From: Geobacter sulfurreducens PCA
GTDB lineage: Bacteria > Desulfobacterota > Desulfuromonadia > Geobacterales > Geobacteraceae
Direction of reading: 5' to 3'
DNA: 32,000 nt
Assembly: GCF_000007985.2 (NCBI RefSeq)
Contig: NC_002939.5
Location: 1,050,001 to 1,082,000, forward strand
Part shown: one piece after another, positions 1 through 24,106 of the stretch
How positions within the stretch are numbered: position 1 is the first letter of the stretch
Layout: every line of letters begins with the position of its first letter
Translations under genes and position numbers: made by a program
Notes under the pieces: generated by a model
Database searches by the model: none
The model's input: the letters and a program-made list of their open reading frames with translations, nothing else
What the model was told of the DNA's origin: nothing

Positions 1-810
1 CGGCTCGAGCCCGTTCACACCCTGGACGACATCGTCCTCCCGGCCCTCCAGATGGCCCAGTTGCGGGAGATCTGCGCCCAGGTCCGCTACCGGCACCTGG
101 TTTTCGGCCAGTGGGGATTCGACCGGAAGCTCTCCTCGGGCAAGGGGCTTACGGTTCTCTTTACGGGGCCTCCCGGCACGGGCAAGACCATGGCCGCCGC
201 GGTGATTGCCCGCGAACTGGGGTTGGAGCTCTACCGGATCGATCTCTCCCAGGTGGTGAGCAAGTACATCGGCGAGACGGAGAAAAACCTGGAGCGCATC
301 TTCGCCGAGGCGGAGACCGCCGGCGCCATCCTGTTCTTCGACGAGGCCGACGCCCTGTTCGGCAGGCGTTCCGAGGTGAAGGACGCCCACGACCGTTATG
401 CGAATATTGAAATCGGCTACCTGCTCCAGCGGATGGAGGAGTACAGCGGCATCTCCATTCTGGCCACGAATCTCCGCCAGAACCTGGACGAGGCCTTCAC
501 CCGCCGCATCCGGATCGTGGTGGAGTTCCCCTTTCCCGACGAGGAATACCGGGAAATGATCTGGCAGCGCATCTTCCCGCCGGAACTTCCCGTGGGGGAC
601 GATGTGGACCTGGGATTCCTGGCCCGCCGGTTCAGAATCTCCGGGGGGGATATCAGGAACGTGGCCCTGGGCGCGGTCTTTTTCGCGGCCGAGGAGGGGC
701 GGCCCCTGGCCATGGCGCACCTGGTCCGCGCCCTGGGCAGGGAGTTGCGCAAGACGGGAAAACCGTGCACCAGGGAGGAGTTCGGAGACTATCTGGAGAT
801 GCTGGCGTGA
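1..810 (+). CDS. AAA+ ATPase of the contractile injection system (Afp15/Pvc15-like), 5' end cut by the window edge
   Basis: The frame is open from nt 1 (RLEPVHTLDDIVLPALQ precedes the first Met at 52). Walker A GPPGTGKT, Walker B ILFFDEADALF, CDC48/FtsH-type AAA core. It lies directly upstream of the DUF4255 cap gene, as in eCIS loci. Confidence 0.9.
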   Translation, partial: RLEPVHTLDDIVLPALQMAQLREICAQVRYRHLVFGQWGFDRKLSSGKGLTVLFTGPPGTGKTMAAAVIARELGLELYRIDLSQVVSKYIGETEKNLERIFAEAETAGAILFFDEADALFGRRSEVKDAHDRYANIEIGYLLQRMEEYSGISILATNLRQNLDEAFTRRIRIVVEFPFPDEEYREMIWQRIFPPELPVGDDVDLGFLARRFRISGGDIRNVALGAVFFAAEEGRPLAMAHLVRALGRELRKTGKPCTREEFGDYLEMLA

Positions 811-823
811 CAGGGATGGAGCC

Positions 824-1420
824 ATGAGCGACTACACGGTGATTGCCGATATCGGGGCCACGCTGATCGGCCTGCTGCGGGAGAGCATGGGCGACCTGCT
901 GTCCGCCGACGCCATCGCGCTTCTCTCTCCGGCGGAGCTGGAAGGGCAGGACATCCGCCTGACCCTCTTCCTCTATGCCGTGAGCGAGAATCCGCACCTG
1001 AAGAACGCCCCGGCCCCGCCGGCTTCGCCGGGTATCCGCCGGGCCCCGCCGCTCCACCTGGACCTTTCCTACCTGCTCACGGCCCACGGCTCACGGCTCA
1101 TCACCGACCGGACCGAACGCTCCTTGGAGGAGCACCGGATCCTGGGGCGGGCCATGCGGGTACTCTACGATAACTCACTGCTGACGGGATCGGTCCTGAA
1201 GGGCGGTCTGGCCGGATCCACGGCCCAGTTCCGGGTGAATCTCCAACCCCTTGCCCTGGACGACCTGTCCAAGATATGGACTGCTCTGCCCAACAACGCC
1301 CTCAAGGCATCGGCAGGGTACCAGGTGACCCCGGTGGCCATTGATTCCACCCGGTCCACCGGCGGGAAACCCGTGGTGGAGAGGACCCTGGAGTACTACC
1401 AGAAAGGGGCCGGGTTATGA
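824..1420 (+). CDS. DUF4255 (Pvc16_N / Afp16-like) tail terminator-cap protein
   Basis: ATG at 824 inside ORF 602..1420. The N-terminus MSDYTVIADIGATLIGLLRESM... and LHLDLSYLLTAHG ... YQVTPVAIDS match my recollection of the DUF4255 family. The upstream part of the ORF overlaps the ATPase gene and is discarded. Confidence 0.8.
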   Translation: MSDYTVIADIGATLIGLLRESMGDLLSADAIALLSPAELEGQDIRLTLFLYAVSENPHLKNAPAPPASPGIRRAPPLHLDLSYLLTAHGSRLITDRTERSLEEHRILGRAMRVLYDNSLLTGSVLKGGLAGSTAQFRVNLQPLALDDLSKIWTALPNNALKASAGYQVTPVAIDSTRSTGGKPVVERTLEYYQKGAGL

Positions 1421-2265
1421 CCGAGGCAGTGATGCTCCAGCCGCCCGACCGGTCCGTGAGCCGCCTTTCCTTCGCGATGCGGCTGGTGGATGACTTCGCG
1501 CCGGAGCGGGAGCCTCCGGCCGGGGTAGCGGTGACGCTCACGGGAGGCGGGACCCAGGGCATTCGCAACCCCGGCGGGTGGCACCTCTTCATGGATCTGC
1601 CGCCGGGAACGTACCGGGTGAGTGCCCGGTCAGAGCTCTACCTGGCGGAGGAGAAGGAGATCGACACCGCGCTGCTGGATCCCGGCCTGCCGGTGGTGGA
1701 GCTGCTGCTTAAGCCGTCCGCTGCCTACCCGTTTCCACCCGGAACCACGCTGGTCCGTGGCGTGGTGAGGAACGAAGCGGGGCAGGACGTGCCGGATGCC
1801 CGGGTGGAGGCGGTTCCCTGGATGCCGGTGCCATCGGTGAAGGGGCGGGTGCGGCAGGGTGGCGCCCAGGCGGGCCAGCCGACCATCCGCCTTGAGCACC
1901 TGTCGGGAGGACTGGCCGCGGGCGACATGCTGCTGGTCAGGGATGGAGACCCCTCCCGCCAGGAGATCGTCCGGATCGCGGCGCCGCTGCCGTCCAACGC
2001 CTCGCAGCCGTTCACCCTGGCGGCGCCGCTCCGTTTCGGCCATGCCGCGGGCACCTCGGTCCACCTTCTGGCGGCTGCCGCGCCCTTCACCACCGCCACG
2101 GCCGGCACCGGGGAATTCGTTGTCTACCAGAGGAACGCATCCGCCCGGCTGTTCGTTATCAGGCTCAGTACGAGCGTAGCGGGATACCTGCCGGACGAGC
2201 GGGATCTGGAGATCGCCGAGGGTACGACCCAATCTGTGGGAGTGATCAGCCTGCACCAGCTCTGA
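1417..2265 (+). CDS. Hypothetical eCIS-associated protein (CarboxypepD_reg/PEGA-like beta-sandwich features)
   Basis: ATGA stop/start overlap with the cap gene at 1417-1420. PPGTYRVSARSELY..EEKEI resembles carboxypeptidase-regulatory-like folds. The C-terminal half weakly resembles the sheath insert repeat. Confidence 0.6.
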   Translation: MTEAVMLQPPDRSVSRLSFAMRLVDDFAPEREPPAGVAVTLTGGGTQGIRNPGGWHLFMDLPPGTYRVSARSELYLAEEKEIDTALLDPGLPVVELLLKPSAAYPFPPGTTLVRGVVRNEAGQDVPDARVEAVPWMPVPSVKGRVRQGGAQAGQPTIRLEHLSGGLAAGDMLLVRDGDPSRQEIVRIAAPLPSNASQPFTLAAPLRFGHAAGTSVHLLAAAAPFTTATAGTGEFVVYQRNASARLFVIRLSTSVAGYLPDERDLEIAEGTTQSVGVISLHQL

Positions 2266-2343: not shown

Positions 2344-4326
2344 ATGCCCGAATATCTGTCGCCCGGAGTGTACGTTGAGGAGTTCGAAATCGGCGCTAAG
2401 CCCATCGAGGGGGTGAGCACCAGCACGGCGGGCTTCCTGGGGGAAACGGAGCGGGGACCCACGGTGCCGCGGCTGGTCACCAGCTGGCTGGAGTACCAGC
2501 GGGTTTTCGGGAGCTACCTGGGATCGGACAAGTACCTTCCCTACACGGTCCAGGGGTTCTTTGACAACGGCGGGAAGCGCTGCTATGTGGGGCGGGTCGT
2601 CAAGGCGGGGGATGCGGCCGCCACGGCGGCCACCGTGAAACTTACGGCCGGCGCGGCCAACGCCCTCACCGTCACTGCCATCGGCGAAGGGGCCTGGGGC
2701 AACAGGGTGGCCGTGAAGGTGAGCCCCGGGAGCCTGTCGGGGTTCAGGCTGAGCGTCTATTACTGGAAATCAGCCCCCACCGCCCTGTTTGACCCGGACT
2801 TCGACCAGAAGGCGAACCCTCGCCCCACGGCGGTGGAGATCTACGACAACCTGTCGGTGGACGAGGCGTCTCCCGACTACTACGACAAGCGGGTGAACGC
2901 GGTTTCCAGCCTGGTCCGGCTCGGCAGGCTGGCCGGCGACACGGGGGGCGCCCCCGACGCCAAGGCAGGGCATATGGGTACGGCCCAGTCCGGTGCCGCT
3001 TCCACCATCACCCTGGCCAGCACCGCCTCGGCCACGGATGACGCCTACAACGGCATGCAGGTCTGGATCGTCGACAAGACCGGCAAGGGGCAGGTCCGCA
3101 CCATCTCCGACTACGTGGGCTCGACGCGGGTGGCCACGGTGAGCGCCGCTTGGACGACCCAGCCCGACAGCACGTCGGTTTACTACGTTTCGTCAGTTGC
3201 TTCGCTCGCCGGAGGGGGGGACGTGCTGGCCCAGCAGGGTACGGCCCAGGCCGGGGCCGCCTCCACCATCACCCTGGCCGCCGGCGCTTCGACCGTGAAC
3301 AATGCTTACAACGGCATGGCCGTCGAGATCCTTGCCGGCACCGGGCTGGGGCAGAAGCGGACAATCTCCGGGTACGTGGGCTCGACGCGGGTGGCCACGG
3401 TGAGCGCCGCCTGGACGACCCAGCCCGACGCCACGTCGGTCTACCGGATCACCCCGTCGCTCATCCTCTCCGACTACGAGCGGGGCGATACGGATTCCCC
3501 CGGCAACCGCAAGGGACTTACCGGATTCAAGGAGATCGACGACATCTCCCTCGTGTATGCGCCCAACGCCCAAGGGGTGGCTGGGCTGCCCGGTTCCCTC
3601 ATCACCCACTGCGAGAACCTCAAGGACCGGTTCGCCATCATTGACGCGGCCCAGGGCTCTACCGTCTCGAACCTCTCGCCCCGCGACACCAACGAATCCA
3701 AGTATGGCGCATTCTACTATCCGTGGCTCAAGGTCATCGACCCCGAGGCAGGGGTGCAGCGCCTGGTGCCGCCCGGAGGCCACGTGGCGGGGATCTACGC
3801 CCGCAGCGACACTGAGCGGGGTGTGCACAAGGCCCCGGCCAACGAGAAGGTGAACGGCGCCGTGGATCTGGAGTTCCCCATCACCAAGGGGGAGCAGGAC
3901 GTGCTGAACCCCCGCGGGGTCAACGTTATCCGTGCCTTCCCCGGCAGGGGGATCCGCGTCTGGGGCGCCCGCACCCTCTCCAGCGACCCGCTCTGGAAGT
4001 ACGTGAACGTCCGGCGACTCTTCATCTTCCTGGAGGAGTCCATCGACGAGGGGACCCAATGGGTGGTGTTCGAGCCCAATGACATCCCGCTCTGGGCCCG
4101 GGTCAGGCAGACCATCGTCCAGTTCCTGACCGGCGTATGGCGCACCGGCGCCCTGGCCGGAGCCACCCCGGAAGAGGCGTTTTTCGTCAAGTGCGACCGG
4201 ACCACCATGACCCAGGACGACATCGACAACGGCCGGCTGATCTGCGTGATCGGCGTGGCTCCGGTTAAGCCAGCGGAATTCGTGATTTTCCGCATCGCCC
4301 AGTGGACCGCCGGGGCCAAGGGGTAG
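2344..4326 (+). CDS. Contractile tail sheath protein (Afp2-4/Pvc2-like)
   Basis: Strong RBS AAAGGAGGA 8 nt upstream. N-terminus MPEYLSPGVYVEE and C-terminal GVNVIRAFPGRGIRVWGARTLS...LWKYVNVRRL are hallmark phage sheath motifs. 660 aa, with an internal duplicated insert. Confidence 0.93.
   Translation: MPEYLSPGVYVEEFEIGAKPIEGVSTSTAGFLGETERGPTVPRLVTSWLEYQRVFGSYLGSDKYLPYTVQGFFDNGGKRCYVGRVVKAGDAAATAATVKLTAGAANALTVTAIGEGAWGNRVAVKVSPGSLSGFRLSVYYWKSAPTALFDPDFDQKANPRPTAVEIYDNLSVDEASPDYYDKRVNAVSSLVRLGRLAGDTGGAPDAKAGHMGTAQSGAASTITLASTASATDDAYNGMQVWIVDKTGKGQVRTISDYVGSTRVATVSAAWTTQPDSTSVYYVSSVASLAGGGDVLAQQGTAQAGAASTITLAAGASTVNNAYNGMAVEILAGTGLGQKRTISGYVGSTRVATVSAAWTTQPDATSVYRITPSLILSDYERGDTDSPGNRKGLTGFKEIDDISLVYAPNAQGVAGLPGSLITHCENLKDRFAIIDAAQGSTVSNLSPRDTNESKYGAFYYPWLKVIDPEAGVQRLVPPGGHVAGIYARSDTERGVHKAPANEKVNGAVDLEFPITKGEQDVLNPRGVNVIRAFPGRGIRVWGARTLSSDPLWKYVNVRRLFIFLEESIDEGTQWVVFEPNDIPLWARVRQTIVQFLTGVWRTGALAGATPEEAFFVKCDRTTMTQDDIDNGRLICVIGVAPVKPAEFVIFRIAQWTAGAKG
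2977..3450 (+). repeat. In-frame tandem duplication (two 71-aa units, period 261 nt) inside the sheath gene
   Basis: Unit 1 is 2977-3189 and unit 2 is 3238-3450. By hand count, 53 of 71 aa are identical. There is a 38-nt exact DNA match (3112-3149 vs 3373-3410, tacgtgggctcgacgcgggtggccacggtgagcgccgc), while the centres of the units have diverged. Confidence 0.85.
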
Positions 4327-4366: not shown

Positions 4367-4804
4367 ATGGCCGGCAGAAAAGATCCATACCGCAATTTCA
4401 GATTTCTCGTGGAGATCGACGGCATCGTTCAGGCCGGATTCAGCGAGGTGACCGTGCCCGATACCTCCACCGACGTGGTGGAGTACCGGGAGGGGAGCGA
4501 GGAGCCGCGCCTGCGCAAGCTCTCGGGACTCAACAAGTTCGGCAACGTGACCCTGAAATGGGGCACTACCGATTCGCTGGAGTTCTTCAACTGGCGCAAG
4601 CTCGTCATGCAGGGAAAGATGAAGGACGCACGCAAGAACATGGCCGTGATCCTCATGGACGAGGAGGGAAATCCTGCGGCACGGTGGGAGTTCGAGAACG
4701 CCTGGCCGAACAAGTACGATCCGGCGGACCTCAATGCCAAGGGGAACGACGTGGCCATCGAGAGCGTGGAGATCGTCCACGAGGGAATGAAGCGCGTGAG
4801 CTGA
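4367..4804 (+). CDS. Tail tube protein 1 (T4 gp19-like / Afp1-like)
   Basis: RBS AAGGGGGA. DPYRNFRFLVEIDGI.QAGFSEV...VVEYREG is the conserved phage tail tube (gp19-family) signature. Confidence 0.9.
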   Translation: MAGRKDPYRNFRFLVEIDGIVQAGFSEVTVPDTSTDVVEYREGSEEPRLRKLSGLNKFGNVTLKWGTTDSLEFFNWRKLVMQGKMKDARKNMAVILMDEEGNPAARWEFENAWPNKYDPADLNAKGNDVAIESVEIVHEGMKRVS

Positions 4805-4820: not shown

Positions 4821-5189
4821 ATGACCATGGCGTTTCAGACCGAATTTGAATTTACCCTTCCCAAGGGGTACGTGGACGGCGAGGGGAACCTTCACCGTCA
4901 GGGGATCATGAGGCTCGCCACCGCGGCCGACGAGGTCCTCCCCCTGAAGGACCCCCGGGTCCAGCAGAACCCGGCCTACCTGACCGTGATCCTGCTCTCC
5001 CGGGTCATGGTCAAGCTGGGGAGCCTGCCGGAGGTGAATCCCCGCATCGTGGAAGGGCTCTTTGTTTCCGACCTGTCGTACCTGCAGGAGTTCTACCGGC
5101 AGATCAACGACGGCGGCGCGGCCCAGGTGAAGGCCGTCTGCCCACGCTGCGAGCACGCCTTCACCATGGAGCTCGCCCCGGGGGAATAA
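4821..5189 (+). CDS. gpE-like tail assembly chaperone (start may be the second ATG at 4827)
   Basis: It sits between tube and tape-measure-like genes. The pattern REPT-like RLATAADE...L..V.P.IVEGLFVSDLSYLQEFY resembles the P2 gpE / Mu gp41 chaperone family. C-terminal CPRCEH. SD AAGGTGG is better spaced for 4827. Confidence 0.6.
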   Translation: MTMAFQTEFEFTLPKGYVDGEGNLHRQGIMRLATAADEVLPLKDPRVQQNPAYLTVILLSRVMVKLGSLPEVNPRIVEGLFVSDLSYLQEFYRQINDGGAAQVKAVCPRCEHAFTMELAPGE

Positions 5190-5227
5190 CGGGCTACCCC
5201 CTCGATCGCATCTACGAGGAGGTAGCC
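5177..5227 (+). promoter_or_regulatory. Candidate -1 programmed ribosomal frameshift cassette (slippery heptamer plus stem-loop)
   Basis: Zero-frame codons are GCC CCG GGG GAA TAA. The heptamer C CCG GGG (5177-5183) fits X XXY YYZ. After an 8-nt spacer there is a hairpin: 5192-5198 pairs with 5221-5227 (7 bp), one mismatch, then 5200-5204 pairs with 5215-5219 (5 bp), with a 10-nt loop. Confidence 0.4.
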
Positions 5228-5365
5228 TTCATCGCCTATTACCTGCACTGGCCCCATGACGAGATCATGGGGATGGAGCATCGGGACCGGCGCCGGTGGT
5301 GCGAGGAAATATCGCGGATCAACCGGTCCGCCAACGCCGATGCCACGAGCATCGCTGATCTGTAG
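5186..5365 (+). CDS. Small conserved eCIS protein / -1 frame extension of the chaperone (no canonical start codon)
   Basis: The -1 frame reads (I)TGYPLDRIYEEVAFIAYYLHWPHDEIMGMEHRDRRRWCEEISRINRS... up to TAG at 5363-5365. It resembles a small protein I recall between tube genes of eCIS loci. There is no ATG/GTG/TTG upstream of the conserved part. The only start candidates are ATA at 5186 (overlapping the TAA as ATAA) or a frameshift fusion. Confidence 0.5.
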   Translation: MTGYPLDRIYEEVAFIAYYLHWPHDEIMGMEHRDRRRWCEEISRINRSANADATSIADL

Positions 5366-5418: not shown

Positions 5419-5859
5419 ATGCCCATGGCGCTCGACAACAGAAAAGATCCCTACGGCGCCTTTCGCTTTCTGGTGGAACTGGAAGGGCTGGTGGTGGGCG
5501 GTTTCGCCGAGGTCTCCGGACTTCAGGCCGAAACCGAGGTGGAGGAGTACCGGGAAGGTGGGGTCAATGAGCATCCGCACAAACTGCGGAAGATCACCCG
5601 TTACCCCAACCTGGTGCTCAGGCGGGGGATCACCGACTGCCGGGTCCTCTGGGAATGGTACCGGGACGTGATCGCCGGTACGGTGTCCCGCCGGAATGGT
5701 GCGGTGATTCTTATGGACAGGGAGGGAAATCCCGCCTGGCGCATGGAGTTCTCCGGGGCCTATCCGGTCAAGTGGGAAGGGCCGGAACTGAAGGCCGACG
5801 GCAATGCCACGGCCATTGAGAAGGTGGAGCTGGTGCACAACGGGCTGAAGGTGGAGTAA
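5419..5859 (+). CDS. Tail tube protein 2 (gp19-like paralogue / Afp5-like)
   Basis: RBS GGAAGGA. DPYGAFRFLVELEGLVVGGFAEVSGL...VEEYREGG is paralogous to tube 1. Confidence 0.9.
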   Translation: MPMALDNRKDPYGAFRFLVELEGLVVGGFAEVSGLQAETEVEEYREGGVNEHPHKLRKITRYPNLVLRRGITDCRVLWEWYRDVIAGTVSRRNGAVILMDREGNPAWRMEFSGAYPVKWEGPELKADGNATAIEKVELVHNGLKVE

Positions 5860-5862
5860 CCC

Positions 5863-7053
5863 ATGACCCTTGCCGAGCGGATCACGGAAAGATGCAGCTG
5901 GCGGAGAGCGGCCGGCCGTCGCGGTTGCCCCGGTACGGTTTCGCTGCTTACACCCGAGCGGCTGATGGGCCGTTACCTGCGGGGGCCCATGACGCTTACG
6001 CCGGTGCCGCTGGTGCATCCGGGGCGGACCGGGCGCCTTGACCTGAGCCTGTCGCTCCGGTTCTTCTGGCAGACGAATGGTTCTCTGGTCATGGGACGAC
6101 CCACAGGAGAGCTGCCGGTTTCCAGTGTGTTGCGACACGGCGGAACAGCGATGGCGCCAGCGGGTCCGGTTGAACAGGGGCCGGGTGCATCGGCCGCCGG
6201 CAGGGGGAGTGATACGGCAGCCCGCTTTGTCCATTCTGCCGGCGGTCTGCCCCGTTGCCTGGACGGGGAGATACTACGCACCATCCTCGGCAGGTTTGAA
6301 GACGTGAGGGTACGGGATCTGGGGCCGGGACGGCGGGAAGATGGCCGGAACCACCGGCAAGATAGGGATTCATTCTCACGGGCGGCGATAGTGGGGATGG
6401 TTACCATGTCGACGTCCGGCTGGGGCAGGATTCTGCCGGCTCACCGTCGTGAACAGTCCGTAGGGGGGAACGTTTTCCCGCACCGGGCCGTCCGCATGAT
6501 GCGGCGTACACCCGCCGGAGTAGCCGCAACTCAGCCCCTGGGTGAAAAGAGCCACGCCAGTGGGGATCATCCGGCAGTCGTGTCGGGGCGGTCTTTCTCC
6601 GCCGGGCAGCGGTTGTCGGCGCCACGGACCCGGCTGATTGGCACGGTCCGGCCCCTCGGTGGCCTTGCTGCCATGGGAAAGCGCAGCGGCTCCGCAGGGG
6701 GGCCGGCAAGAGTCGGTACGGCCTCCCTGCCGGAGAGGGGGACGGTTGCCGGTTCAGCTGCCATGGATCAGCGCCGGCGGGGGATGGTGTCTCCGGTGCC
6801 CGCCGACGCTTTGGAGAAAGAACTTGTCCTGACCCACGCGATGGCCGGCCCCGTGAGCCGGTCGGCCCTTGTCTCCCGCCCTCCGGCAGCCGTGCCGGCT
6901 AACGCTGTGCCCTTTGCCGGGCCGGTGGCGGCGGAGACGGGGCGGGTGGCGCGGGCACCGGCTGCCGCAGTGGATGTGAATCGGCTGGCCGACGAGGTCT
7001 GCCGGGTGATCGAACGGAGACTCGTCACCGAACGGGAACGGCGGGGACGATGA
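5863..7053 (+). CDS. Putative tape-measure-like / tube-lumen protein (R/G/A/P-rich, predicted disordered)
   Basis: ATG lies 3 nt after the tube 2 stop, and the ORF ends 15 nt before the LysM gene. Position matches the P2-type order tube-chaperone-tape measure. Only the C-terminus VDVNRLADEVCRVIERRLVTERERRGR looks structured. Third-position codon usage is less GC-biased than in its neighbours. Confidence 0.5.
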   Translation: MTLAERITERCSWRRAAGRRGCPGTVSLLTPERLMGRYLRGPMTLTPVPLVHPGRTGRLDLSLSLRFFWQTNGSLVMGRPTGELPVSSVLRHGGTAMAPAGPVEQGPGASAAGRGSDTAARFVHSAGGLPRCLDGEILRTILGRFEDVRVRDLGPGRREDGRNHRQDRDSFSRAAIVGMVTMSTSGWGRILPAHRREQSVGGNVFPHRAVRMMRRTPAGVAATQPLGEKSHASGDHPAVVSGRSFSAGQRLSAPRTRLIGTVRPLGGLAAMGKRSGSAGGPARVGTASLPERGTVAGSAAMDQRRRGMVSPVPADALEKELVLTHAMAGPVSRSALVSRPPAAVPANAVPFAGPVAAETGRVARAPAAAVDVNRLADEVCRVIERRLVTERERRGR

Positions 7054-7068
7054 GGGGAGGTGCGGGGC

Positions 7069-7686
7069 ATGGCCCTTGAGAAGGCAAAGCTCGTGAACGC
7101 CGACACCGGCGAGGAGGTGGCGGTCCTGTTCAATCCCACCGAGTACGCGGTGGAAAAGGGGAACCAGTACGCGGAAATCGCCATCCCCGGGCTGGAGGCG
7201 CCGTTGCTCCAGTTCAGCCGGGGAACTGCCCGTACCCTGACCATGGATCTCTTTCTCGATACCTCTGAGACGGGGCAGGATGTGCGGGTTCACACCAAGC
7301 GGATCACCTCGTTCCTGGACATCGATCCCGAGACCCATGCCCCGCCCGTCTGCCGCTTCGTCTGGGGAGGCGGCGAGAGCTTCACCGGCGTGCTGGAGCG
7401 GGCCACCCAGCGGTTCACCATGTTTCTGGCCGACGGGACCCCCGTGCGGGCCACGGTGGGGGTGGCGCTGAAGGAGTTCCGGACCGGCCTCAACCGGGAA
7501 AAGCCGCTCCAGTCGCCGGACCGGACCAAAGTAAGAACCATGGGGGAGGGTGACAGTCTCTGGCTTCTGGCTGCCCGGGAATACGGGGACCCGGCCCAGT
7601 GGCGGTTCATCGCCCGGGAGAGCGGCATCGTCAATCCGCGGCGGGTGAAGGCCGGCACCGACCTGGTCATTCCCCCCATCGAGTGA
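7069..7686 (+). CDS. LysM-domain CIS tube-initiator / baseplate hub protein (Afp7-like)
   Basis: ATG at 7069 with GAGGGGAGG upstream (the track start at 7060 is a GTG). The N-terminal tube-like fold is followed by a C-terminal LysM: GDSLWLLAAREYGDPAQWRFIARESGIVNPRRVKAGTDLVIP. Confidence 0.85.
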   Translation: MALEKAKLVNADTGEEVAVLFNPTEYAVEKGNQYAEIAIPGLEAPLLQFSRGTARTLTMDLFLDTSETGQDVRVHTKRITSFLDIDPETHAPPVCRFVWGGGESFTGVLERATQRFTMFLADGTPVRATVGVALKEFRTGLNREKPLQSPDRTKVRTMGEGDSLWLLAAREYGDPAQWRFIARESGIVNPRRVKAGTDLVIPPIE

Positions 7687-9421: not shown

Positions 9422-9451
9422 AATCCTTCGCGGTGTCGGGGGAGATGGGGC

Positions 9452-10361: not shown

Positions 10362-10380
10362 CATCGAGGTGCGAACTGCC

Positions 10381-17943: not shown

Positions 17944-19830
17944 ATGTCGAACGACCGCACCCTGAGCCCATTCCAGAGAAACCTCTATTTTTACGGCAAG
18001 CTGATGACAGTCCGGGACTTCGAGATGGAGCAGTCCTACCTGAACGGCAAGCGCCACCTGATCAACAGGATGGTGCTCGGCACTGGAGCGGTATGCGGCC
18101 TTGAGGTGACCGCCTCCTGGGACGAGTCGAAAAAGACTGTCGCGCTCAGTGTCGGCGAAGGTGTGGCCATTGACTGCGGCGGCCGGGAGATCGTGGTGGA
18201 CAGACCCTCCGCCGTCACCTTCGAGCCGGCCCCGGATGTCACGTCCTACTGCCTCTGGCTGAGCCGGGAGGACTGCCGCATTGAACCGGCTCCGGCCCCC
18301 ATGGCCGACAGCGGCAACGCCTGCGGCGAAACCTGCTGCTACAGCCGGGTGCGGGAGGATTTTTCCCTGGCCGTGCAGAAATGGGATGGCCCGGTCCCGT
18401 CGGTTGACGACGCCTGGTCCGGCCTCTTCACCACGGAGACGACCGATAGTCGGGCGGACATCCGGGCTCTGTTGAAGGCCCACTTCGACCGGATTCTGGC
18501 CGGCTGCCCTGCCTGCGGGGAGCCCTGCCGGGTGCCGTTGGCCCTGGTGATACGCAAGGGAGGTGCCTGGAGCGGCACCCCGGACATCATCCAGAACATC
18601 GTCGTGCACACCAATCCTGAACTATTCGAGATGATTCGCCGCCACCTGACCGACCTGGGCAACCCCCATATGACCACCGCAGCCCAGGTGGGAGCGCTGA
18701 AGAGCGTGGACGGGGTCGAGAATCCGGGCGGCAACGTGGACCTGGTGGCGGCAAACGCCGTCCAGATCACGCCCAACACCACCGCCAGGACCATCACGAT
18801 CGGTGAGAGCCATTCGGGGGTCACCGGCAACCCCCACAACACCCGGCACGAGCAGACCGGTCCGGCCTGTGTTGACCCCGCAAGTGACGATACCACCTGC
18901 GATAAGCACGTCTCCAACGCCAATGCCATGCGCTGGAACCGCTCTCTGGCAGGGCTCACCGTGAACGGCGGCAGCCTTGTCGTCAATCCCGGCGCGGCCA
19001 TCGACCTGGCAGCCGGACAGAATGTGACCCTGGCCGCCGATCCCGCCGGCAAGAAGATCACCATCAGCGCCGCAGGCGGCGGAGGGGCCTCGGCCCGCAC
19101 GGGGCGGATCTCCATCACGACCAATTCCGACGGCGTAGGCACGGCGCGGGTTACCTCCGGGTTTGACGATAATCTCTTCTGCGTGCAGGTAGGCATAGAT
19201 TACGGTGAGCACGTGGAATACGGTTCGGTCCTCCGCTATGCCGGCCAGACGGCGTTCATCACGGTGCGGGTGCTCAGGTACCAGGACGTCGGAAGCTTCG
19301 ATATCATGTTCTCCGCTCCGGGGGTCGGCCAGCGCACGCTGTCTCTGCGCTGGGTCGCCATCCCGGCCGTTGCCGTTGCGGAGCCGACAATAACCGTGAC
19401 GTCTCCCACCGTTACGGTTACCTCGCCCACATTCACCCTCACGCAACCGACCTTTACCATGACGCAGCCCACGTTTACCCTGACCCGCCCGACCTTCACC
19501 ATGACCGCGCCAACGCTCACGATGCCCACTATCCCAACCATGACCATCCCGAGCGTAACCATCCACGGCCCGATCATGAGTGGTCCCGGAACAGTGGAGG
19601 CCCCCACGGTGATCGTTCCCCCCGGTAAGAGCACGCAGTCTCCGCACCTGACGGACGTGAAGGGGATCGGGCCGGCCTTGGCCGGGAAACTGACGGCAGC
19701 CGGCATCTCGACCATTGCCGATCTTGCGGCCGCCTCCGTCAATGCCGTGGCGGCCGCCCTGGGTGTCAGCGATCCCGCTCGGGCGCGCGGTTTTATCGAC
19801 GCGGCCAGGAAATTGGCTAAAAAACGATGA
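17944..19830 (+). CDS. Tail-fibre-like protein (Afp13 position) with Thr-rich heptad repeats and C-terminal helix-hairpin-helix
   Basis: Strong RBS AAAGGAGGA. Fibre-type motif GNPHMTTAAQVGA plus a second GNPHNTRHEQ. Heptad array at 19384-19551. C-terminus VKGIGPALAGKLTAAGISTIADL. Confidence 0.7.
   Translation: MSNDRTLSPFQRNLYFYGKLMTVRDFEMEQSYLNGKRHLINRMVLGTGAVCGLEVTASWDESKKTVALSVGEGVAIDCGGREIVVDRPSAVTFEPAPDVTSYCLWLSREDCRIEPAPAPMADSGNACGETCCYSRVREDFSLAVQKWDGPVPSVDDAWSGLFTTETTDSRADIRALLKAHFDRILAGCPACGEPCRVPLALVIRKGGAWSGTPDIIQNIVVHTNPELFEMIRRHLTDLGNPHMTTAAQVGALKSVDGVENPGGNVDLVAANAVQITPNTTARTITIGESHSGVTGNPHNTRHEQTGPACVDPASDDTTCDKHVSNANAMRWNRSLAGLTVNGGSLVVNPGAAIDLAAGQNVTLAADPAGKKITISAAGGGGASARTGRISITTNSDGVGTARVTSGFDDNLFCVQVGIDYGEHVEYGSVLRYAGQTAFITVRVLRYQDVGSFDIMFSAPGVGQRTLSLRWVAIPAVAVAEPTITVTSPTVTVTSPTFTLTQPTFTMTQPTFTLTRPTFTMTAPTLTMPTIPTMTIPSVTIHGPIMSGPGTVEAPTVIVPPGKSTQSPHLTDVKGIGPALAGKLTAAGISTIADLAAASVNAVAAALGVSDPARARGFIDAARKLAKKR
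19384..19551 (+). repeat. Eight tandem 21-nt (7-aa) repeats, consensus P-T-[FIVL]-T-[VLM]-T-x, within the fibre gene
   Basis: PTITVTS PTVTVTS PTFTLTQ PTFTMTQ PTFTLTR PTFTMTA PTLTMPT IPTMTIP. The DNA units differ at synonymous positions, so this is an old, protein-level repeat. Confidence 0.85.
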
Positions 19831-21092
19831 ACGTTGTATTCGTCCATCCTTCCTATCCGAACCAGTTCACCGGGATAGCCAACGCTCTTTCCCGGAAAAG
19901 GGGGTGGGAGTGTGCCTTTCTGGTGGATCGGGCGTTCACCGGGCAGATCCGCCGGGACAAGCCCCCTGTCGCCTACTACGGGTACGGGGAGGAGGCATCG
20001 CCCCTGTCGGGGACCTACTACACCCGCTGCATCGAGGAGGGGGCGCGCCGGGGCAAGGCCATCGTGGAGGCCCTGGCGCACATCCATGCCTCGACCGGCA
20101 TCGACGCCGTGGTGGGGCACGCATCCTTCGGGGCAACCCTGTTCGTTCGGGAGATTCTCGCTATCCCTGTGGTCTCCTATGTGGAGCTGCCCGGATACCA
20201 TCCGGCCTTCTGCCGGGATGAATTCCCGGGCCGGTATCCCCAGAGCCTTATGGACGTGGCCCTGCGCTCTCTTATTCATTCGAGTGTGATTCATTCGGAT
20301 CTCTGCGTGGTTCCCTCCGCCTACGCCCGCGACCTGTTCCCACCAGAGCTTCGCAACAAGGTACGGGTCCGGATGGAGGGGTTTGCCCTGCCTCCCCCGG
20401 CAGGTGACCGGGAGGCTCTGCGGCGTGAACTGGGCATAACCGGGAACGGGCCGGTCATCGGCTTTGCGGGCAGGACCCTGGAGGCGGTGCGGGGCTTCGA
20501 CGTGTTTGTCCGGGCCGTCGGCAGGATTCGTGCCGTCCGCCCCGACGCACACTTCCTCGTCGTTGGCGATGAGACGAGCATCTACGGCAACGAAGCATCC
20601 TACCTGGGGGGGGCCTCGTTCAAGCAGCATGCCCTCCGGCAGGAAGGAATGGAGGATGAGGAGTTCATCTTCCGGCCCTTTGTCCCCCACGACCAGTTCG
20701 TGCGCTACCTCCAGGCCATGGATGTCATCCTGTTTCCCTTGTTCGAGGGGGCGGCCAACTGGGGACTGTTCGAGGCCATGGCCGCCGGCGTGCCGGTGAT
20801 TGCCTCCCGGCGCTGCTTTATCCCCGAGGTGATCGAGGACGGGCGCGACGGGATCCTGCTGGATGCCGCGGACGCAGAAGGGTTCGCGGCCGCGGCCCTG
20901 GCGCTGCTGGAAGACAGTGCCCGCGCCGAGGCCATGAGCCGGGCCGGCCGGCAGAAAATTGCCCGATCGTTCTCCGTAGAGCGGGCCGCAAGCGGCTATG
21001 CCGCCATTATTCGTGAGGCGATACGCCGTCACGGCAGCGGAGCACGAAACCCTTACTGCGGGCGGGAACGGGGCATCTGTCCTGCGGCATGA
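19827..21092 (+). CDS. Glycosyltransferase, GT-B fold (GT4 / Glycos_transf_1-like)
   Basis: ATGA overlap with the fibre gene stop at 19827-19830. C-terminal FPLFEGAANWGLFEAMAAGVPVIAS......E.I.DG..G.L carries the E-x7-E retaining-GT signature. Confidence 0.85.
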   Translation: MNVVFVHPSYPNQFTGIANALSRKRGWECAFLVDRAFTGQIRRDKPPVAYYGYGEEASPLSGTYYTRCIEEGARRGKAIVEALAHIHASTGIDAVVGHASFGATLFVREILAIPVVSYVELPGYHPAFCRDEFPGRYPQSLMDVALRSLIHSSVIHSDLCVVPSAYARDLFPPELRNKVRVRMEGFALPPPAGDREALRRELGITGNGPVIGFAGRTLEAVRGFDVFVRAVGRIRAVRPDAHFLVVGDETSIYGNEASYLGGASFKQHALRQEGMEDEEFIFRPFVPHDQFVRYLQAMDVILFPLFEGAANWGLFEAMAAGVPVIASRRCFIPEVIEDGRDGILLDAADAEGFAAAALALLEDSARAEAMSRAGRQKIARSFSVERAASGYAAIIREAIRRHGSGARNPYCGRERGICPAA

Positions 21093-21163
21093 CCGGTCCG
21101 TCTCCGTTGTACTCTCCTATCCTGGGCTCTCCCCGCGGGAGCAACCAGTAGCCGGGGACATCC

Positions 21164-24106
21164 ATGACATCTCAGAAAGCCGGACCGAAACCGATCAACA
21201 CAGCCAGGCGCCCGGAGCGACCCGCTCCGGTTCCGTCGCCGGCCCGGTCCGGCACGCCTGCCGGCCCGGTCCGACAGCTCCAGCAGACCATCGGTAACCG
21301 TCGAACGGGAGAGATGCTCAAGGCTGCGACCGCAGCCGATGCCACGGGGGAGACTGCCCCCGGCGTCATGGAGCTGAAGGGGATGCCCACCTTTGTGCCG
21401 CCCCCGCCCATTGCCGACTTCCTGAAGGAACGCACGCGAGGGAACGTCAATGTCCGGTTCGGCAGCCTCGCGGCCGGTCAGCTGGAGGTCCGCCGGGTCG
21501 GGCAACGTTACTCCGTGCGCGAACAGGCAATCCCCCTGACTCACCCCCTGTTCACGGGTGCCCTCGCCCCCTCTCTCCTTGTGGCGGTCGGCGACGGCGG
21601 AAAGATCCGGGGCCGGGTGGGCTTCGACGGGGGAAAAGGGAATCTCGCCGTACTGATCCGTAAGTCCCCTGACTTGGTGGGGCTCGGTGCCCTTGACCTG
21701 AGCCGGCTCGGCTCAGCGATCAATACCCTGGAGAACGGTGCCCTCCATCTGGGAATCAAGGGCACGCCGATCCGGATGGGAGGGGCGTTTACCGGTACCC
21801 TCACCCTTGAGGCGGTCAACGAGGCGATCACCTTTGAAGGGAGCGCGGCTGTGACCGTGCGGGGGCTCGCTTCGGGCAGCCTGGAGCTGAAACGGTCCAC
21901 CGAAGGGATCGTCACCGGTACGGCCACGGTGGGGCTCACTCTGCCCAAGGGGTTCTCCGGCAACGTGGCAGTGGGGTGGGACGGCCGGGCCATTACGGGT
22001 GAGGGTAAGGTCGGCTATACGGGGGAGAAGTTTTCCGGCGAGGTCCTCCTTCGTCTCATGGAAAAGGGGGCGGCGGCCCGACTCGAAGCCGCCAACACGG
22101 CCCCGGAGCGAACACCTGCACCGGCAGCCACGGTTGGTCCGCGTAGCGACAAGGTCGACTACGTGGTCTTCGGCGAGGGGGACCTTACCTTTGCCTTTAC
22201 CGACTGGCTGAACGGAACAGCCCACGTCATCGTCGACCCCCGGGGAAACCTCACCGTAATCGGCAAGATCACCCCCCAGAAAGAGTTCATCCTCTTTCCC
22301 CAGAAGGACTTCAACAAGGATCTCTTCAAGGTGGAGGCCCGGGCCTCCTACGGCATTCCCGTGGTGGGAAACATCTTCATTTTTGCCAACGTGGGGATGG
22401 GTGCCTTTGCCAAGCTTGGTCCGGCCAAGTTCTACAATATCGTGGTGGAGGGGACCTACTCCACCGACCCGAAAAAGGCGCAGAACTTCACTATCCAGGG
22501 GAGCCTCAATATCTCCGCCGCGGCCGGTCTCCGGCTCCGGGGCGAGGCCGGTGCCGGGCTCGAAATCCTGTCCCACGACATAAAGGCCGGCGCCGGCGTC
22601 AACGCCCTGGCCGGAATCAGGGGGTACGCGGAGGCGACGCCTGTCATCGGCTATCGGGAAAAAGGTGCCGAAGGAGAGGACAAAAAAGGGGAGTTCTTCA
22701 TCCGGGGCGACATGGAGATCGCGGCCCAGCCGTTCCTGGGGCTGTCGGGTGACCTTTTCGTGGAGATCGATGCCCCGTGGTGGTCGCCCGTCCCCGACAA
22801 GCGGTGGACCTGGCCCCTGGGGGGGAAGGAGTGGCCCATCGGCGGCAGTTTCGGCGTCGGCGCCACGGTGGATTACGTCTTCGGCTCCAGCCAAGCACCT
22901 TCTGTCGAGTTCAAGCCGGTGGAGTTTTCCGCTGAGAAGTTCATGACCGATCTCTACAGCGACAAGGCTACGGGAGGCTCCGGCGACAAGGGAGAGAAAA
23001 AGGGGGCGTGGAAGGAAAAGAATACCAGGGCGGCGGAGCCGCCGCCAAAGCAGGCGAAGAAGGGGGCGGCCCAGGAGGGAGAGGCGCCGAAACAATCTCC
23101 GGCAAAGGCCAGGGTTACGCCTGGAGGGCCCAAAAAAGCCAAAAAGCCTGCCGACCCCAACGCCCGGACCGCCGACGGCAAGACTGTTCGGCAGTATCAG
23201 GCGGAGGCAGAAAAAAGGGGGAAGAGACCGGGGGCGAAGGAGCCGGAAAAGAAGGCCGACAAGCCTGCAACCGACGTTGCCGCGCGCATGGGGCGGGTAA
23301 AGACGGCCCTGGATCAGGCCTTGGCCTATGCGGAGAAGACGGGGATTGGCCTCAACGAGCTCAATACCGTCCTGAAATCGATCCGTCGCCGCAAGGAGTA
23401 CGGTCTCAAGGAACTCAAGGCCCGGGACGGCGGCGAGAATTGGATCGTGGCGGCTACCCTCAATCCCACCCAGGATCTCAAGACCGTCAAGAAAAAGGGG
23501 AAAGCTGCCGCGGCAGGGGACCTCTACTATGAAAAGCCGTTCCCCATCCCTTCATACAAGGAGCACGCAGGGGCGGGCGCAAAGCACAAAACCCTCTATA
23601 CGGGACGGGCCAAGGCCGATAAGCTGTTCCATGAAAAAAGGGACCGCAAAACAGGTCAGGTCGGCAAGTGGGAATCCTGGGCGAGGCAGAACCTGAGCGA
23701 GCCCCTCAAGAAGAAAGCCGCTGACCTGGGCATGAGCGACCGGGATATCGTGCGCCCCCGTTTCAACCGGGCCGGGGAGAAGATGACCTTCCACATCGAT
23801 CATATCGTCGAATACCAGCTCCAGGGGGACGACGAGACTGAAAACTACTGGATGCTCCGGGGATCGGAAAATAGCAGTTCGGGCTCCACGCTCAAGGCCG
23901 CCATCGCGGCGGTCCGCACGGAGAGCGACAAGAAGCGTAAAGAGGACGGCCAGCCAGCCACGGTCAAGATATTCTTCAAAAATCCGGTTCTGGAAGGAAA
24001 CGCCGAAGATACCATCTACTGGAGGAAGTCGGAGATCAAGAAGGGCGATCACATCGCAGCGTACGAGAAACACCGCGACAGTTTGAAGAATCAGCTGAAG
24101 GAGTAA
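21164..24106 (+). CDS. Putative eCIS cargo/effector: disordered N-terminal leader with LQxTIGN motif, beta-rich middle, Lys-rich linker, C-terminal His-Me (HNH-like) nuclease motif
   Basis: Last gene of the + strand array. VRQLQQTIGNRRTGEML (21278-21319) resembles the LQRTIGNxAxxxLL motif at the N-terminus of DUF4157/eCIS-associated proteins. FHIDHIVEYQLQGDDETENYWMLRGSENSSSGSTLK shows a D-H...N...N...K spacing. Confidence 0.7.
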   Translation: MTSQKAGPKPINTARRPERPAPVPSPARSGTPAGPVRQLQQTIGNRRTGEMLKAATAADATGETAPGVMELKGMPTFVPPPPIADFLKERTRGNVNVRFGSLAAGQLEVRRVGQRYSVREQAIPLTHPLFTGALAPSLLVAVGDGGKIRGRVGFDGGKGNLAVLIRKSPDLVGLGALDLSRLGSAINTLENGALHLGIKGTPIRMGGAFTGTLTLEAVNEAITFEGSAAVTVRGLASGSLELKRSTEGIVTGTATVGLTLPKGFSGNVAVGWDGRAITGEGKVGYTGEKFSGEVLLRLMEKGAAARLEAANTAPERTPAPAATVGPRSDKVDYVVFGEGDLTFAFTDWLNGTAHVIVDPRGNLTVIGKITPQKEFILFPQKDFNKDLFKVEARASYGIPVVGNIFIFANVGMGAFAKLGPAKFYNIVVEGTYSTDPKKAQNFTIQGSLNISAAAGLRLRGEAGAGLEILSHDIKAGAGVNALAGIRGYAEATPVIGYREKGAEGEDKKGEFFIRGDMEIAAQPFLGLSGDLFVEIDAPWWSPVPDKRWTWPLGGKEWPIGGSFGVGATVDYVFGSSQAPSVEFKPVEFSAEKFMTDLYSDKATGGSGDKGEKKGAWKEKNTRAAEPPPKQAKKGAAQEGEAPKQSPAKARVTPGGPKKAKKPADPNARTADGKTVRQYQAEAEKRGKRPGAKEPEKKADKPATDVAARMGRVKTALDQALAYAEKTGIGLNELNTVLKSIRRRKEYGLKELKARDGGENWIVAATLNPTQDLKTVKKKGKAAAAGDLYYEKPFPIPSYKEHAGAGAKHKTLYTGRAKADKLFHEKRDRKTGQVGKWESWARQNLSEPLKKKAADLGMSDRDIVRPRFNRAGEKMTFHIDHIVEYQLQGDDETENYWMLRGSENSSSGSTLKAAIAAVRTESDKKRKEDGQPATVKIFFKNPVLEGNAEDTIYWRKSEIKKGDHIAAYEKHRDSLKNQLKE

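Follow-up and report, generated by a model that had tools for sequence, protein, structure and literature searches.

A lineage II-like contractile injection system operon of Geobacter sulfurreducens with a candidate frameshift signal in its chaperone gene and a putative toxin cargo

The window analysed here is a stretch of 32,000 nucleotides (nt) of the Geobacter sulfurreducens PCA chromosome (NC_002939.5, positions 1,050,001 to 1,082,000 of the forward strand). Its positions 1-24106 are a chromosomal contractile injection system (CIS) operon, GSU0972-GSU0992, which is a complete CIS of the Afp/PVC superfamily (antifeeding prophage, Photorhabdus virulence cassettes) and is neither a prophage nor a type VI secretion system (T6SS). 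Its best overall explanation is that it encodes a lineage II, IIa-like machine that is released and delivers the product of its last gene, GSU0992, a reading that we consider probable though far from assured. The locus is already catalogued and its operon-wide co-expression has been shown by others. To this, our analysis adds a putative carrier-domain family of cargo proteins and a conserved candidate frameshift signal in the chaperone gene, both proposed from sequence comparison.

The open reading frame (ORF) listing gave a series of 21 collinear genes without break on the plus strand, which is also that of the candidate frameshift signal given below; their third-position G+C is 0.71-0.90 and none is antisense. 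They include the sheath, two gp19-type tubes, the baseplate set, a DUF4255 cap and a dedicated AAA+ ATPase, and hence the CIS core set. Stop and start codons overlap at 1417-1420, 5186-5189, 8765-8778 and 19827-19830, and the remaining intergenic gaps are 3-121 nt, except for the spike-PAAR gap of 231 nt (9422-9652, taking the ATG at 9653 as the PAAR start). A preliminary description of the window, made from the sequence without database searches, had counted about 20 genes, which agrees with the listing, and had recorded all of these overlaps except the one at 5186-5189; its range of 0-120 nt for the gaps holds for most of them but not for the spike-PAAR gap. The roles that it assigned agree with the profile matches, but its gene list omits the DUF6760 reading frame (5186-5365) that lies between the gene for a 122-amino-acid (aa) protein and tube 2. 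It had also called the operon complete. All parts are indeed present, but not wholly in the window: the operon begins some 1.4 kb upstream of nt 1, and the window edge truncates the ATPase to the last 269 of its 743 aa. Its guess of a Geobacter-type host was correct.

The same description had argued against a prophage and against a T6SS, and both points stand. Capsid, portal, terminase, integrase, repressor and lysis genes were absent from the 9.2 kb upstream (inspected in the identical contig L002) and from the 7.9 kb downstream; both flanks carry housekeeping genes only. Pfam and NCBIfam scans of all 21 products gave no TssB/C/K, TssJLM, Hcp, ClpV or other T6SS-specific family. The canonical T6SS of G. 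sulfurreducens is encoded elsewhere (GSU0430, GSU3165-3174).

Relatives of the sheath were sought in a scan with one genome per species, of which the best 80 loci were listed. These are mostly from methanogens, anaerobic methanotrophic archaea (ANME) and haloarchaea. Among the loci listed, the closest sheaths belong to Dissulfurispiraceae, a spirochaete metagenome-assembled genome (MAG), Pelotomaculum, Desulfotomaculaceae, Methanoperedens, Methanosarcina, Methanolobus, ANME-1, ANME-2, ANME-3, Bathyarchaeota and many haloarchaea. No other Geobacter species appears in the best 80 loci, which is weak evidence as G. sulfurreducens itself was not returned either. The 16 loci examined, bacterial as well as archaeal, agree in their gene order apart from the placement of the ATPase in two haloarchaeal ones; in the bacterial and non-haloarchaeal archaeal loci it runs ATPase, cap, GSU0974, sheath, tube, chaperone, DUF6760, tube 2, a variable gene, Cis7, hub, spike, PAAR, gp25, Cis11a and Cis11b; no capsid, portal or terminase homologue was noted beside these 16 loci. 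Among solved structures, the best match of the sheath is Halogeometricum borinquense Cis2 (9EZM, E 4.6e-155, with an alignment limited to aa 1-186 and 373-656), and that of Streptomyces coelicolor is next (8BKY/9GTP, 2e-124), compared with 1e-47 to 1e-55 for the PVC, Afp, Anabaena thylakoid-anchored CIS (tCIS) and AlgoCIS structures.

According to Chen 2019, subtypes IIa and IIc have two Afp11 copies, and IIa and IIb retain divergent Afp12 and Afp13. The Halogeometricum CIS was assigned to clade IIa, which then had no other characterised member (PMC11566945). The Geobacter operon encodes two Baseplate_J proteins, Cis12, Cis13 and PAAR, lacks Afp6 and has archaeal loci among its relatives. Because of the two Baseplate_J genes together with Cis12, Cis13 and PAAR, the operon appears to belong to lineage II and fits subtype IIa, a provisional placement drawn from gene content and best matches.

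The H. borinquense cluster (PMC11566945) has homologues of 14 Geobacter proteins, with 29-61% identity, and its sheath is 60% identical to that of Geobacter in the C-terminal half. Both systems have two Cis11 proteins, Cis12, Cis13, PAAR, a chaperone with DUF6760, Cis16 and the ATPase, and toxins of the DUF4157-associated type are encoded beside the Halogeometricum cluster. However, the Geobacter operon is uninterrupted and starts with the ATPase, whereas the Halogeometricum cluster consists of two parts, and its ATPase and cap genes lie on the opposite strand. GSU0974, a GT4 glycosyltransferase, an NHL propeller on Cis12, a helix-hairpin-helix (HhH) fibre tip and a repeat insert in the sheath are extras of the Geobacter operon. 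The chaperone genes differ in their slippery heptamer (G GGG GAA in Geobacter, G GGA AAT in Halogeometricum) and the hosts differ in their envelopes, Geobacter being a diderm bacterium and Halogeometricum an S-layered archaeon.

The S. coelicolor system CIS-Sc (subclade IId, PMC10066040) gives the second-best solved matches (sheath 2e-124, gp25 2e-35, Baseplate_J 5e-50, Cis12 1e-10), and Streptomyces clavuligerus has a chaperone-DUF6760 pair with G GGG GAA, as in Geobacter. Streptomyces systems have one Cis11 and lack a conventional fibre, and that of S. coelicolor has no PAAR and needs the membrane protein CisA; in contrast, the Geobacter operon has two Cis11, PAAR and a Cis13 fibre and encodes no membrane protein. 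The Afp of Serratia and the PVC of Photorhabdus, the model eCIS (extracellular CIS), both of subtype Ia, are much more distant (sheath 1e-49 to 1e-55, gp25 1e-14 to 1e-16). They have in common with Geobacter the tube, sheath, LysM initiator, VgrG-like hub, gp25, PAAR, Baseplate_J, gpI-like protein, fibre, tape measure, AAA+ ATPase and DUF4255 cap, as well as a cargo gene at the 3' end whose product has a disordered N-terminal leader. Unlike them, the Geobacter operon has one sheath gene and not three, a hub and spike split into two genes, two Baseplate_J genes, the ATPase and cap at the 5' end, a fibre that is not adenovirus-like, and GSU0974, the chaperone and DUF6760 as additions.

Several elements of this locus had been reported before. 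Geller et al. 2021 listed NC_002939:1041859-1074108 of G. sulfurreducens PCA as operon 65544 of their extracellular CIS (eCIS) set and found eCIS in 10 of 24 Geobacter genomes. The gp25 homologue GSU0986 has been crystallised (PDB 2IA7) and served to model TssE of the T6SS (PMC3352280). RNA sequencing papers show that GSU0972-0992 rise jointly, 4- to 10-fold, in biofilms of delta-GSU1771 and delta-csrA mutants, and transcriptome papers report GSU0972 down in a delta-fliW mutant and the sheath gene up in anode biofilms. In the biofilm mutants, the operon is co-regulated with exopolysaccharide (EPS) genes, and GSU0991 has been counted among the EPS glycosyltransferases; otherwise the Geobacter transcriptome papers label the operon genes as hypothetical or of unknown function. 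No study of the structure or function of the Geobacter particle turned up in our literature search. The preliminary description knew of no functional CIS characterisation in Geobacter-type anaerobes; the locus itself had already been put on record by the catalogue entry, the gp25 structure and the transcriptomes.

The candidate frameshift signal lies at the 3' end of GSU0977 (4821..5189), whose zero-frame product of 122 aa resembles tail assembly chaperones (PHROG 508 'tail assembly chaperone', 2e-4). Its homologues, which are named 'phage tail assembly protein' by the annotation pipeline PGAP, show 59-75% identity in 16 tabulated related loci. The following frame, GSU0978 (5186..5365), matches DUF6760 (PF20546, matched by the gene as called). 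At its conserved N-terminus the frame opens with ATA instead of a start codon, and no in-frame ATG occurs until about 80 nt farther on. Despite this, homology extends from its very first residue. In 71 of 71 related loci the frame is -1 relative to the chaperone, and in most cases it has no start codon there either. The GSU0977 gene ends in GCC CCG GGG GAA TAA, and the candidate signal (5177..5227) comprises the heptamers C CCG GGG (5177-5183) and G GGG GAA (5180-5186), a 5-nt spacer and an 11-bp hairpin (5192-5227), which starts 5 nt past the heptamer. A candidate -1 frameshift at this site would join GSU0977 to DUF6760 in a fusion of about 181 aa.

The candidate signal is found outside Geobacter too: it is present in the Halogeometricum cluster, in S. 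clavuligerus and in Nostoc, and in loci L011-L089 and L106-L108. Nearly all of 55 bacterial, methanogen and ANME loci, selected by a GGCTACC-type motif in the DUF6760 frame, have a zero-frame G GGG GAA (or G GGG GGA, or G GGG GGG). The heptamer lies one codon farther from the stop in seven loci, mostly from Firmicutes, and the same holds for Streptomyces and Nostoc. Since its position shifts relative to the stop codon, the heptamer and not the stop codon is the conserved element. The canonical G GGA AAY is found in 15 of 17 haloarchaeal-type loci and in H. borinquense pHBOR03, 7-19 nt before the stop and most often 16. Geobacter additionally carries the canonical heptamer C CCG GGG. In a gapless alignment of 52 sequences, the hairpin pairs in 95.8% of cells, compared with 31-63% in slid controls. 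It also shows covariation, with double changes at 5 of its 11 pairs and a score that none of 500 shuffles reached. Streptomyces has another sequence at a similar position, in which a perfect 8-bp stem is possible by inspection (GUACGCGG...CCGCGUAC).

The GSU0977-DUF6760 pair thus has the features of a frameshifted chaperone, namely a position between tube and tape measure, a startless -1 ORF, a slippery heptamer and a downstream structure. In phages, G/GT of lambda and E/E' of P2 likewise have a gene between tube and tape measure that encodes a small acidic protein, a startless -1 extension, a slippery heptamer at the 3' end and a downstream hairpin, and the lambda-type heptamer G GGA AAY is the one used by the haloarchaeal CIS copies. 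As Xu, Hendrix and Duda are said to have found in 2004, the -1 frameshift of the tail chaperone is conserved across tailed phages. The Geobacter copy differs from the phage chaperones in belonging to a non-viral injection system and in having a second tube gene before the tape measure. Two caveats apply to frameshifting, whose fusion product is predicted from sequence. An ATG (as ATGA) is present at the junction in 12 of 72 loci, where it would permit independent initiation, and the commonest heptamer, G GGG GAA, is non-canonical and needs a G-U pair in the A site after the slip. No mention of DUF6760 or of a chaperone frameshift in a CIS was found in the literature searched. If universal in lineage II, the frameshifted GSU0977-DUF6760 would be a previously undescribed part of these machines, and the signal, if real, matters to anyone rebuilding lineage II systems in other hosts.

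The gene at the tape-measure position, GSU0980 (5863..7053), encodes a protein of 396 aa with an isoelectric point of 11.7 and matches no profile. Its counterparts in most of about 50 related loci compared range from 280 to 1688 aa and share a C-terminal motif, VD[IV]N.[IL].[DE]QVY..[IL]ER[RK][IL].[IM]E[RK]ERRG, of which the Geobacter version is VDVNRLADEVCRVIERRLVTERERRGR. The genes at this position (GSU0980 and those of L011-L085) end in QVY..IERRIRIERERRG, and the motif is also found in the haloarchaeal locus of Halogranum (L051). A variable length with a fixed C-terminus is what would be expected of a length-determining protein, and GSU0980 can be viewed as tape-measure-like. Afp14 homologues have been reported to be generally absent from lineage II (Chen 2019) and from the Halogeometricum cluster (PMC11566945).

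The putative cargo or toxin, GSU0992 (21164..24106, 980 aa), was delimited from its homology family, AlphaFold models and a motif; Pfam, NCBIfam and PHROGs gave nothing for it. Its N-terminus (aa 1-60) is disordered and basic, with a net charge of +7. It is followed by an all-beta region of about 540 aa, which we call the carrier domain (aa 61-604, 21344-22975), modelled by AlphaFold with 27-residue hairpins and a confidence score (pLDDT) of 83. A linker rich in Lys and Pro and a small domain of helices come next, and the protein closes with a variable, HNH-like C-terminal domain (HIDH at 877-880). Foldseek searches of PDB and BFVD with the full-length and carrier-domain models gave nothing better than a template-modelling score of 0.15, the matches being generic long-beta-sheet proteins only (LptD, porins, MACPF). 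PDB sequence searches with the single sequence, the family profile and a profile of the C-terminal domain gave nothing relevant.

BLASTP found more than 300 relatives of GSU0992 with 45-65% identity over 59-92% of the query. In an exhaustive search, the carrier domain alone retrieved 738 cluster representatives (50% identity level) from bacteria and archaea, 302 of them at E<=1e-30. The 150 best representatives, which include bacterial and archaeal MAG proteins, show 40-67% identity, nearly all over almost the full domain length. Many relatives have DUF4157 in front of the carrier region, and their C-termini carry swapped toxin domains, for instance Endonuclea_NS_2, LHH, an AID/APOBEC-type deaminase, Tox-REase-7 and others; the usual place of the carrier domain is between DUF4157 and such a variable toxin domain. 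By sequence, the family has a polymorphic-toxin architecture, that is, a constant core with interchangeable C-termini. GSU0992 lacks DUF4157 itself and retains the 'LQQTIGNR' motif that precedes it in relatives. A cargo-family gene directly follows the CIS ATPase in two other loci. DUF4157 is an accepted marker of eCIS-associated toxins (EATs), and DUF4157 proteins of Halogeometricum are toxic and secreted in a CIS-dependent manner. With EATs and polymorphic toxins (PMC8213781, PMC11297309), GSU0992 shares its place at the end of an operon, a hydrophilic, disordered and positively charged N-terminus, and relatives with DUF4157 and interchangeable nuclease or deaminase C-termini. It differs from them in having lost DUF4157, in a carrier domain that has no Pfam model or fold match, and in having no adjacent immunity gene.

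The preliminary description had called the cargo nuclease-like, and it does look so. A motif D-H..E.Q..D..N.W.L..N..G is invariant between the C-terminal domain of GSU0992 and 11 homologues, and the domain is modelled as strand-strand-helix with a pLDDT below 70. Its HNH-like nature is nevertheless unproven, as the HNH match in Pfam is weak (E 0.047-0.064), no PDB profile match was obtained and the pLDDT is low.

The genes between the baseplate and the cargo encode a fibre and a glycosyltransferase. GSU0990 (17944..19830) is a Cis13-like fibre (NCBIfam CIS13_fam 3.6e-38 on aa 7-248; HHH_5 6.8e-9). Its N-terminal part is a conserved baseplate-anchor region, a Pro/Thr repeat follows, and the C-terminus is a helix-hairpin-helix domain. 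In the Cis13 family, the first 250-380 residues are constant, which agrees with the baseplate-anchor logic of a 2026 fibre catalogue, and the remainder is swapped: the C-termini include the PT repeat, HHH_5, Peptidase_S74, Peptidase_G2, collagen, CarboxypepD_reg and S-layer domains. Such swapping resembles the behaviour of receptor-binding fibres and would favour an extracellular mode of action. The start of the GT4 glycosyltransferase gene GSU0991 (19827..21092; Glyco_trans_4_3 5.7e-28, Glyco_trans_1_4 1e-26) overlaps the stop codon of the fibre gene, and the order Cis12, HhH fibre, GT4 and toxin is retained in a related locus (L090). It is a reasonable guess that GSU0991 glycosylates the fibre, at its Pro/Thr repeat.

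In the mode of action that we favour, the baseplate would assemble from Cis7, the Cis8a hub, the Cis8b spike, PAAR, gp25, Cis11a/b and Cis12 and would bear the Cis13 fibres. A phage-type chaperone, made both as GSU0977 alone and as the GSU0977-DUF6760 fusion that -1 frameshifting would yield, would hold the tape-measure-like GSU0980, whereby tube length would be set. The Cis1a/b tube and the sheath would polymerise and be capped by Cis16, while the AAA+ ATPase would aid assembly or load the cargo. GSU0992 would be this cargo, recognised via its disordered basic N-terminus and its carrier domain. Upon binding of the fibres to a target, the sheath would contract and drive spike, tube and cargo into the cell, inside which the HNH-like C-terminal domain probably cuts nucleic acid.

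Whether such a machine leaves the cell is the less secure part of this reading. Release of a free particle from lysing cells, as in a true eCIS, is the more likely mode, its probability being only slightly better than even. The preliminary description had taken an AAA+ ATPase and a DUF4255 cap as defining eCIS. This rule does not hold, as the Halogeometricum CIS, which is attached to the cytoplasmic membrane, killing on contact in a T6SS-like manner (PMC11566945), and the S. coelicolor CIS, which is cytoplasmic (PMC10066040), share the gene set and are not extracellular. Since both have the ATPase and the cap, the mode of action cannot be read from gene content. An extracellular mode is favoured by the absence of any predicted membrane span in the proteins of the operon. 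In H. borinquense, the candidate anchor HBOR_RS17580, which appears from the description in the paper to be Hbor_38620, is encoded upstream of the cluster and has six transmembrane segments and a C-terminal domain of about 150 aa. No homologue of it was found in the window and the 9 kb upstream (41 kb; tblastn best E 0.48), and homologues were detected in three haloarchaeal loci (L084, L087 and L065). For clusters without this anchor, the authors of the Halogeometricum study propose a different mode (PMC11566945).

Several observations weigh against a released, cargo-delivering particle. No particle has been seen in Geobacter. Of the nearest relatives with a characterised system, Halogeometricum has one anchored in a membrane and Streptomyces a cytoplasmic one, neither being extracellular. 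The operon contains no holin, endolysin or other release gene. The helix-hairpin-helix is a fold that binds DNA, and a fibre that binds cell surfaces would not usually have it at its tip. Lastly, no immunity gene follows the cargo gene, the next gene being a convergent thioesterase, and the cargo genes of two related loci (L090 and L009) have no same-strand follower; a missing immunity gene would be odd for an antibacterial toxin.

The strongest alternative, which we nevertheless judge rather unlikely, is that the machine is not released and acts from inside its producer, either as a membrane-anchored device fired outward on contact, as in Halogeometricum, or as a cytoplasmic device by which the producer is killed or remodelled under stress, as in S. 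coelicolor or with the thylakoid-anchored CIS of Anabaena. The similarities point in this direction: the sheath matches 9EZM at 4.6e-155 and 8BKY/9GTP at 2e-124, as against about 1e-52 to 1e-55 for Pvc2 and Afp3, Cis11 matches 9GTP at 5e-50, and 14 components are in common with the H. borinquense cluster. The missing lysis and immunity genes are in line with it, as is induction in dense biofilms, a setting that would suit action by contact, and within a cell the HhH fibre tip would meet DNA. However, no homologue of the candidate anchor was found in the 41 kb searched and the operon encodes no membrane protein, and it is for such anchor-less clusters that the Halogeometricum authors suggest another mode. 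Moreover, in a diderm such as Geobacter, a tail anchored in the inner membrane must cross the periplasm and the outer membrane, and no TssJLM-type complex is present; G. sulfurreducens already has a canonical T6SS elsewhere, and C-terminal swapping of the fibre is typical of target recognition.

It is much more doubtful that GSU0992 is a structural or matrix-associated protein which is not injected, with the GT4 enzyme and the HhH fibre tying the particle to the biofilm matrix (extracellular DNA or polysaccharide). The carrier domain is highly conserved (40-67% identity among the 150 best representatives) and all-beta, with very long hairpins and no fold match, the cargo has no immunity gene, and the operon is co-regulated with exopolysaccharide genes, GSU0991 being counted among the EPS glycosyltransferases. 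All this would suit a matrix protein, but members of the family bear bona fide C-terminal toxin domains together with N-terminal DUF4157, the signature of eCIS-associated toxins, and the DUF4157 proteins of Halogeometricum are both toxic and CIS-dependent in their secretion. Finally, the reading of the operon as what is left of a decayed myovirus prophage, or as an R-type tailocin killing by membrane depolarisation without a protein cargo, can be practically dismissed: the tail genes are phage-derived, the putative chaperone frameshift and the sheath-tube-chaperone-tape-measure order are as in P2-like tails and the G+C contrast suggests horizontal acquisition, but the AAA+ ATPase, the DUF4255 cap, the LysM/CIS_tube initiator and the cargo gene are all foreign to R-type tailocins, no holin/endolysin cassette, integrase, repressor or att-like tRNA flank is present, and the gene order recurs in 16 of 16 related loci beside which head or packaging homologues were not noted.

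The operon has a wider interest, as G. sulfurreducens is the model organism both of electroactive biofilms and of the direct exchange of electrons with methanogens, and this 25-kb operon is among the most strongly induced gene blocks in hyper-biofilm mutants. The Geobacter system could be a tractable bacterial model for a clade whose one characterised member that we found is archaeal. The carrier domain, which has no existing profile, marks hundreds of cargo proteins. More speculatively, and with a fairly low probability as a whole, the machine may be neither a free syringe against eukaryotes nor a classical T6SS, and these elements may together represent a cross-domain CIS family exchanged between syntrophic anaerobes (Geobacter, Pelotomaculum, Methanosarcina, Methanoperedens and ANME archaea) and acting on partners or competitors in dense electroactive or syntrophic aggregates, in which the carrier domain would carry the toxin or translocate it through the membrane of the target, and the frameshifted chaperone would be universal in lineage II.

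The remaining genes were assigned by scans against Pfam, NCBIfam and PHROGs and by PDB sequence searches for solved structures. GSU0972 (1..810 in the window) is the C-terminal part of a Cis15/Afp15-like AAA+ ATPase (Pfam AAA 4e-29), whose full-length copy in contig L002 has a winged-helix domain (4e-60) and one AAA domain (3e-31). GSU0973 (824..1420) is the tail-terminator cap Cis16 (DUF4255/Pvc16_N, 5.7e-44). GSU0974 (1417..2265) is a clade-specific accessory with a carboxypeptidase-regulatory-like beta-sandwich (CarboxypepD_reg 1.4e-7, 0.1 bit under the cut-off). It follows Cis16 in most related loci checked, with archaeal copies consisting of the N-terminal third only, and was not detected in H. 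borinquense. The inner tube Cis1a is GSU0976 (4367..4804; Phage_T4_gp19 2.9e-48) and the second tube-family protein Cis1b is GSU0979 (5419..5859; Phage_T4_gp19 1.2e-45).

The contractile sheath Cis2, GSU0975 (2344..4326, 660 aa; Phage_sheath_1 1e-21, Phage_sheath_1C 5e-18), contains an insert (2944-3465) made of a tandem pair of 87-aa repeats with 72% identity over 74 aligned residues. The insert has no Pfam family, and its site is the position of a flexible, unresolved segment in Halogeometricum Cis2. The preliminary description had listed it among the modules that differ from the model systems. It is not special to this locus: the sheaths of L011-L017, L022 and L023 likewise contain the repeat of about 74 aa, with two copies in the closest relatives, including a Methanoperedens MAG. 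It occurs at non-sheath positions as well, in L040, L047 and L081, in up to four copies. Since it is shared with the sheaths of relatives and found at non-sheath positions, the repeat behaves as a mobile decoration domain.

Among the baseplate genes, GSU0981 (7060..7686) is a Cis7/Afp7-like tube initiator with a C-terminal LysM (CIS_tube 1.2e-31; PHROG 380 to the LysM part). GSU0982 (7690..8778) is the gp27/gpD/VgrG-like hub Cis8a, matched by NCBIfam VgrG_rel (1.4e-45) and Phage_GPD (0.0019), both scoring below their curated cut-offs, and by PHROG 52 'tail protein' (8e-35). All the families that the preliminary description had named were matched, Phage_GPD being the only weak one in Pfam. GSU0983 (8765..9421) is the gp5-like OB-fold spike Cis8b (Phage_base_V 1e-31, with a weak Gp5_trimer_C match), GSU0985 (9653..9949) the PAAR spike tip Cis10 (PAAR_motif 1.1e-17) and GSU0986 (9960..10361) the gp25-like sheath initiator Cis9 (GPW_gp25 5e-28; PDB 2IA7 E 9e-85 over 1-133). 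The baseplate wedge is encoded by GSU0987 (10369..13740, Cis11a, 1123 aa; Baseplate_J 4.7e-11, TIGR02243 1.8e-70, Baseplate J-like protein of PDB 9GTP 5e-50) and GSU0988 (13764..15797, Cis11b, 677 aa; Baseplate_J 1.1e-16, TIGR02243 4.7e-239 over the full length). GSU0989 (15813..17822) is a gpI-like Cis12 with an N-terminal NHL beta-propeller (NHL 1.7e-13, Tail_P2_I 7e-10), which also matches NCBIfam CIS12_fam (1e-70, partial match) and tail_TIGR02242 (3e-52).

Over its first 11.4 kb, the window has 100% identity with MAG contig DPAK01000012.1, and its identity with strain KN400 is 99.98%. Upstream of the ATPase, as seen in contig L002, lie a divergent RF-1-domain gene and genes for a 983-aa repeat protein, an S41 peptidase and an InlB-repeat protein. 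The 983-aa protein, GSU0970, was considered as a cargo paralogue and rejected, as BLASTP gave no match and it is a repeat/beta-propeller protein. Four genes upstream of the ATPase, about 9 kb before nt 1 (L002:1-888), a 350-aa protein with at least 6 hydrophobic segments, predicted to span the membrane, and no Pfam match is encoded. Compared with the haloarchaeal anchor candidate, its sequence showed no relationship, and it was discarded as such. Downstream of 24106 are genes for a convergent 4HBT thioesterase, class I fumarase, Fpg/MutM, DnaB, LpxA and FabMG. G+C is 64-69% over most of the operon (1-23000), compared with 61-64% at the 3' end of the cargo gene and in the flanking genes. This contrast, together with nearest relatives in other phyla and archaea rather than in other Geobacter, suggests that the operon was acquired horizontally. 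Matches to a sigma-54 promoter before the ATPase gene were no commoner than in shuffled sequence.

Within the spike-PAAR gap lies a 151-nt element (9452-9602) bounded by 34-nt inverted repeats whose arms are 91% complementary, with a predicted fold of -99 kcal/mol (z -4.7). It is absent from related loci, where the gap is 14-25 nt (L011 and L090), and no other copy of the 34-nt repeat was found in the window; a metagenome scan gave only single unpaired matches in unrelated contigs and revealed no repeat family. The element looks like a G. sulfurreducens-specific insertion, possibly similar to a miniature inverted-repeat transposable element. An Rfam search showed no known RNA family within the operon. 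Close to the right end of the window, at 31541-31617 of the plus strand, it detected a c-di-GMP-I (GEMM-I) riboswitch aptamer with 42.8 bits (gathering score 35), and the gene under its control would lie outside the window.

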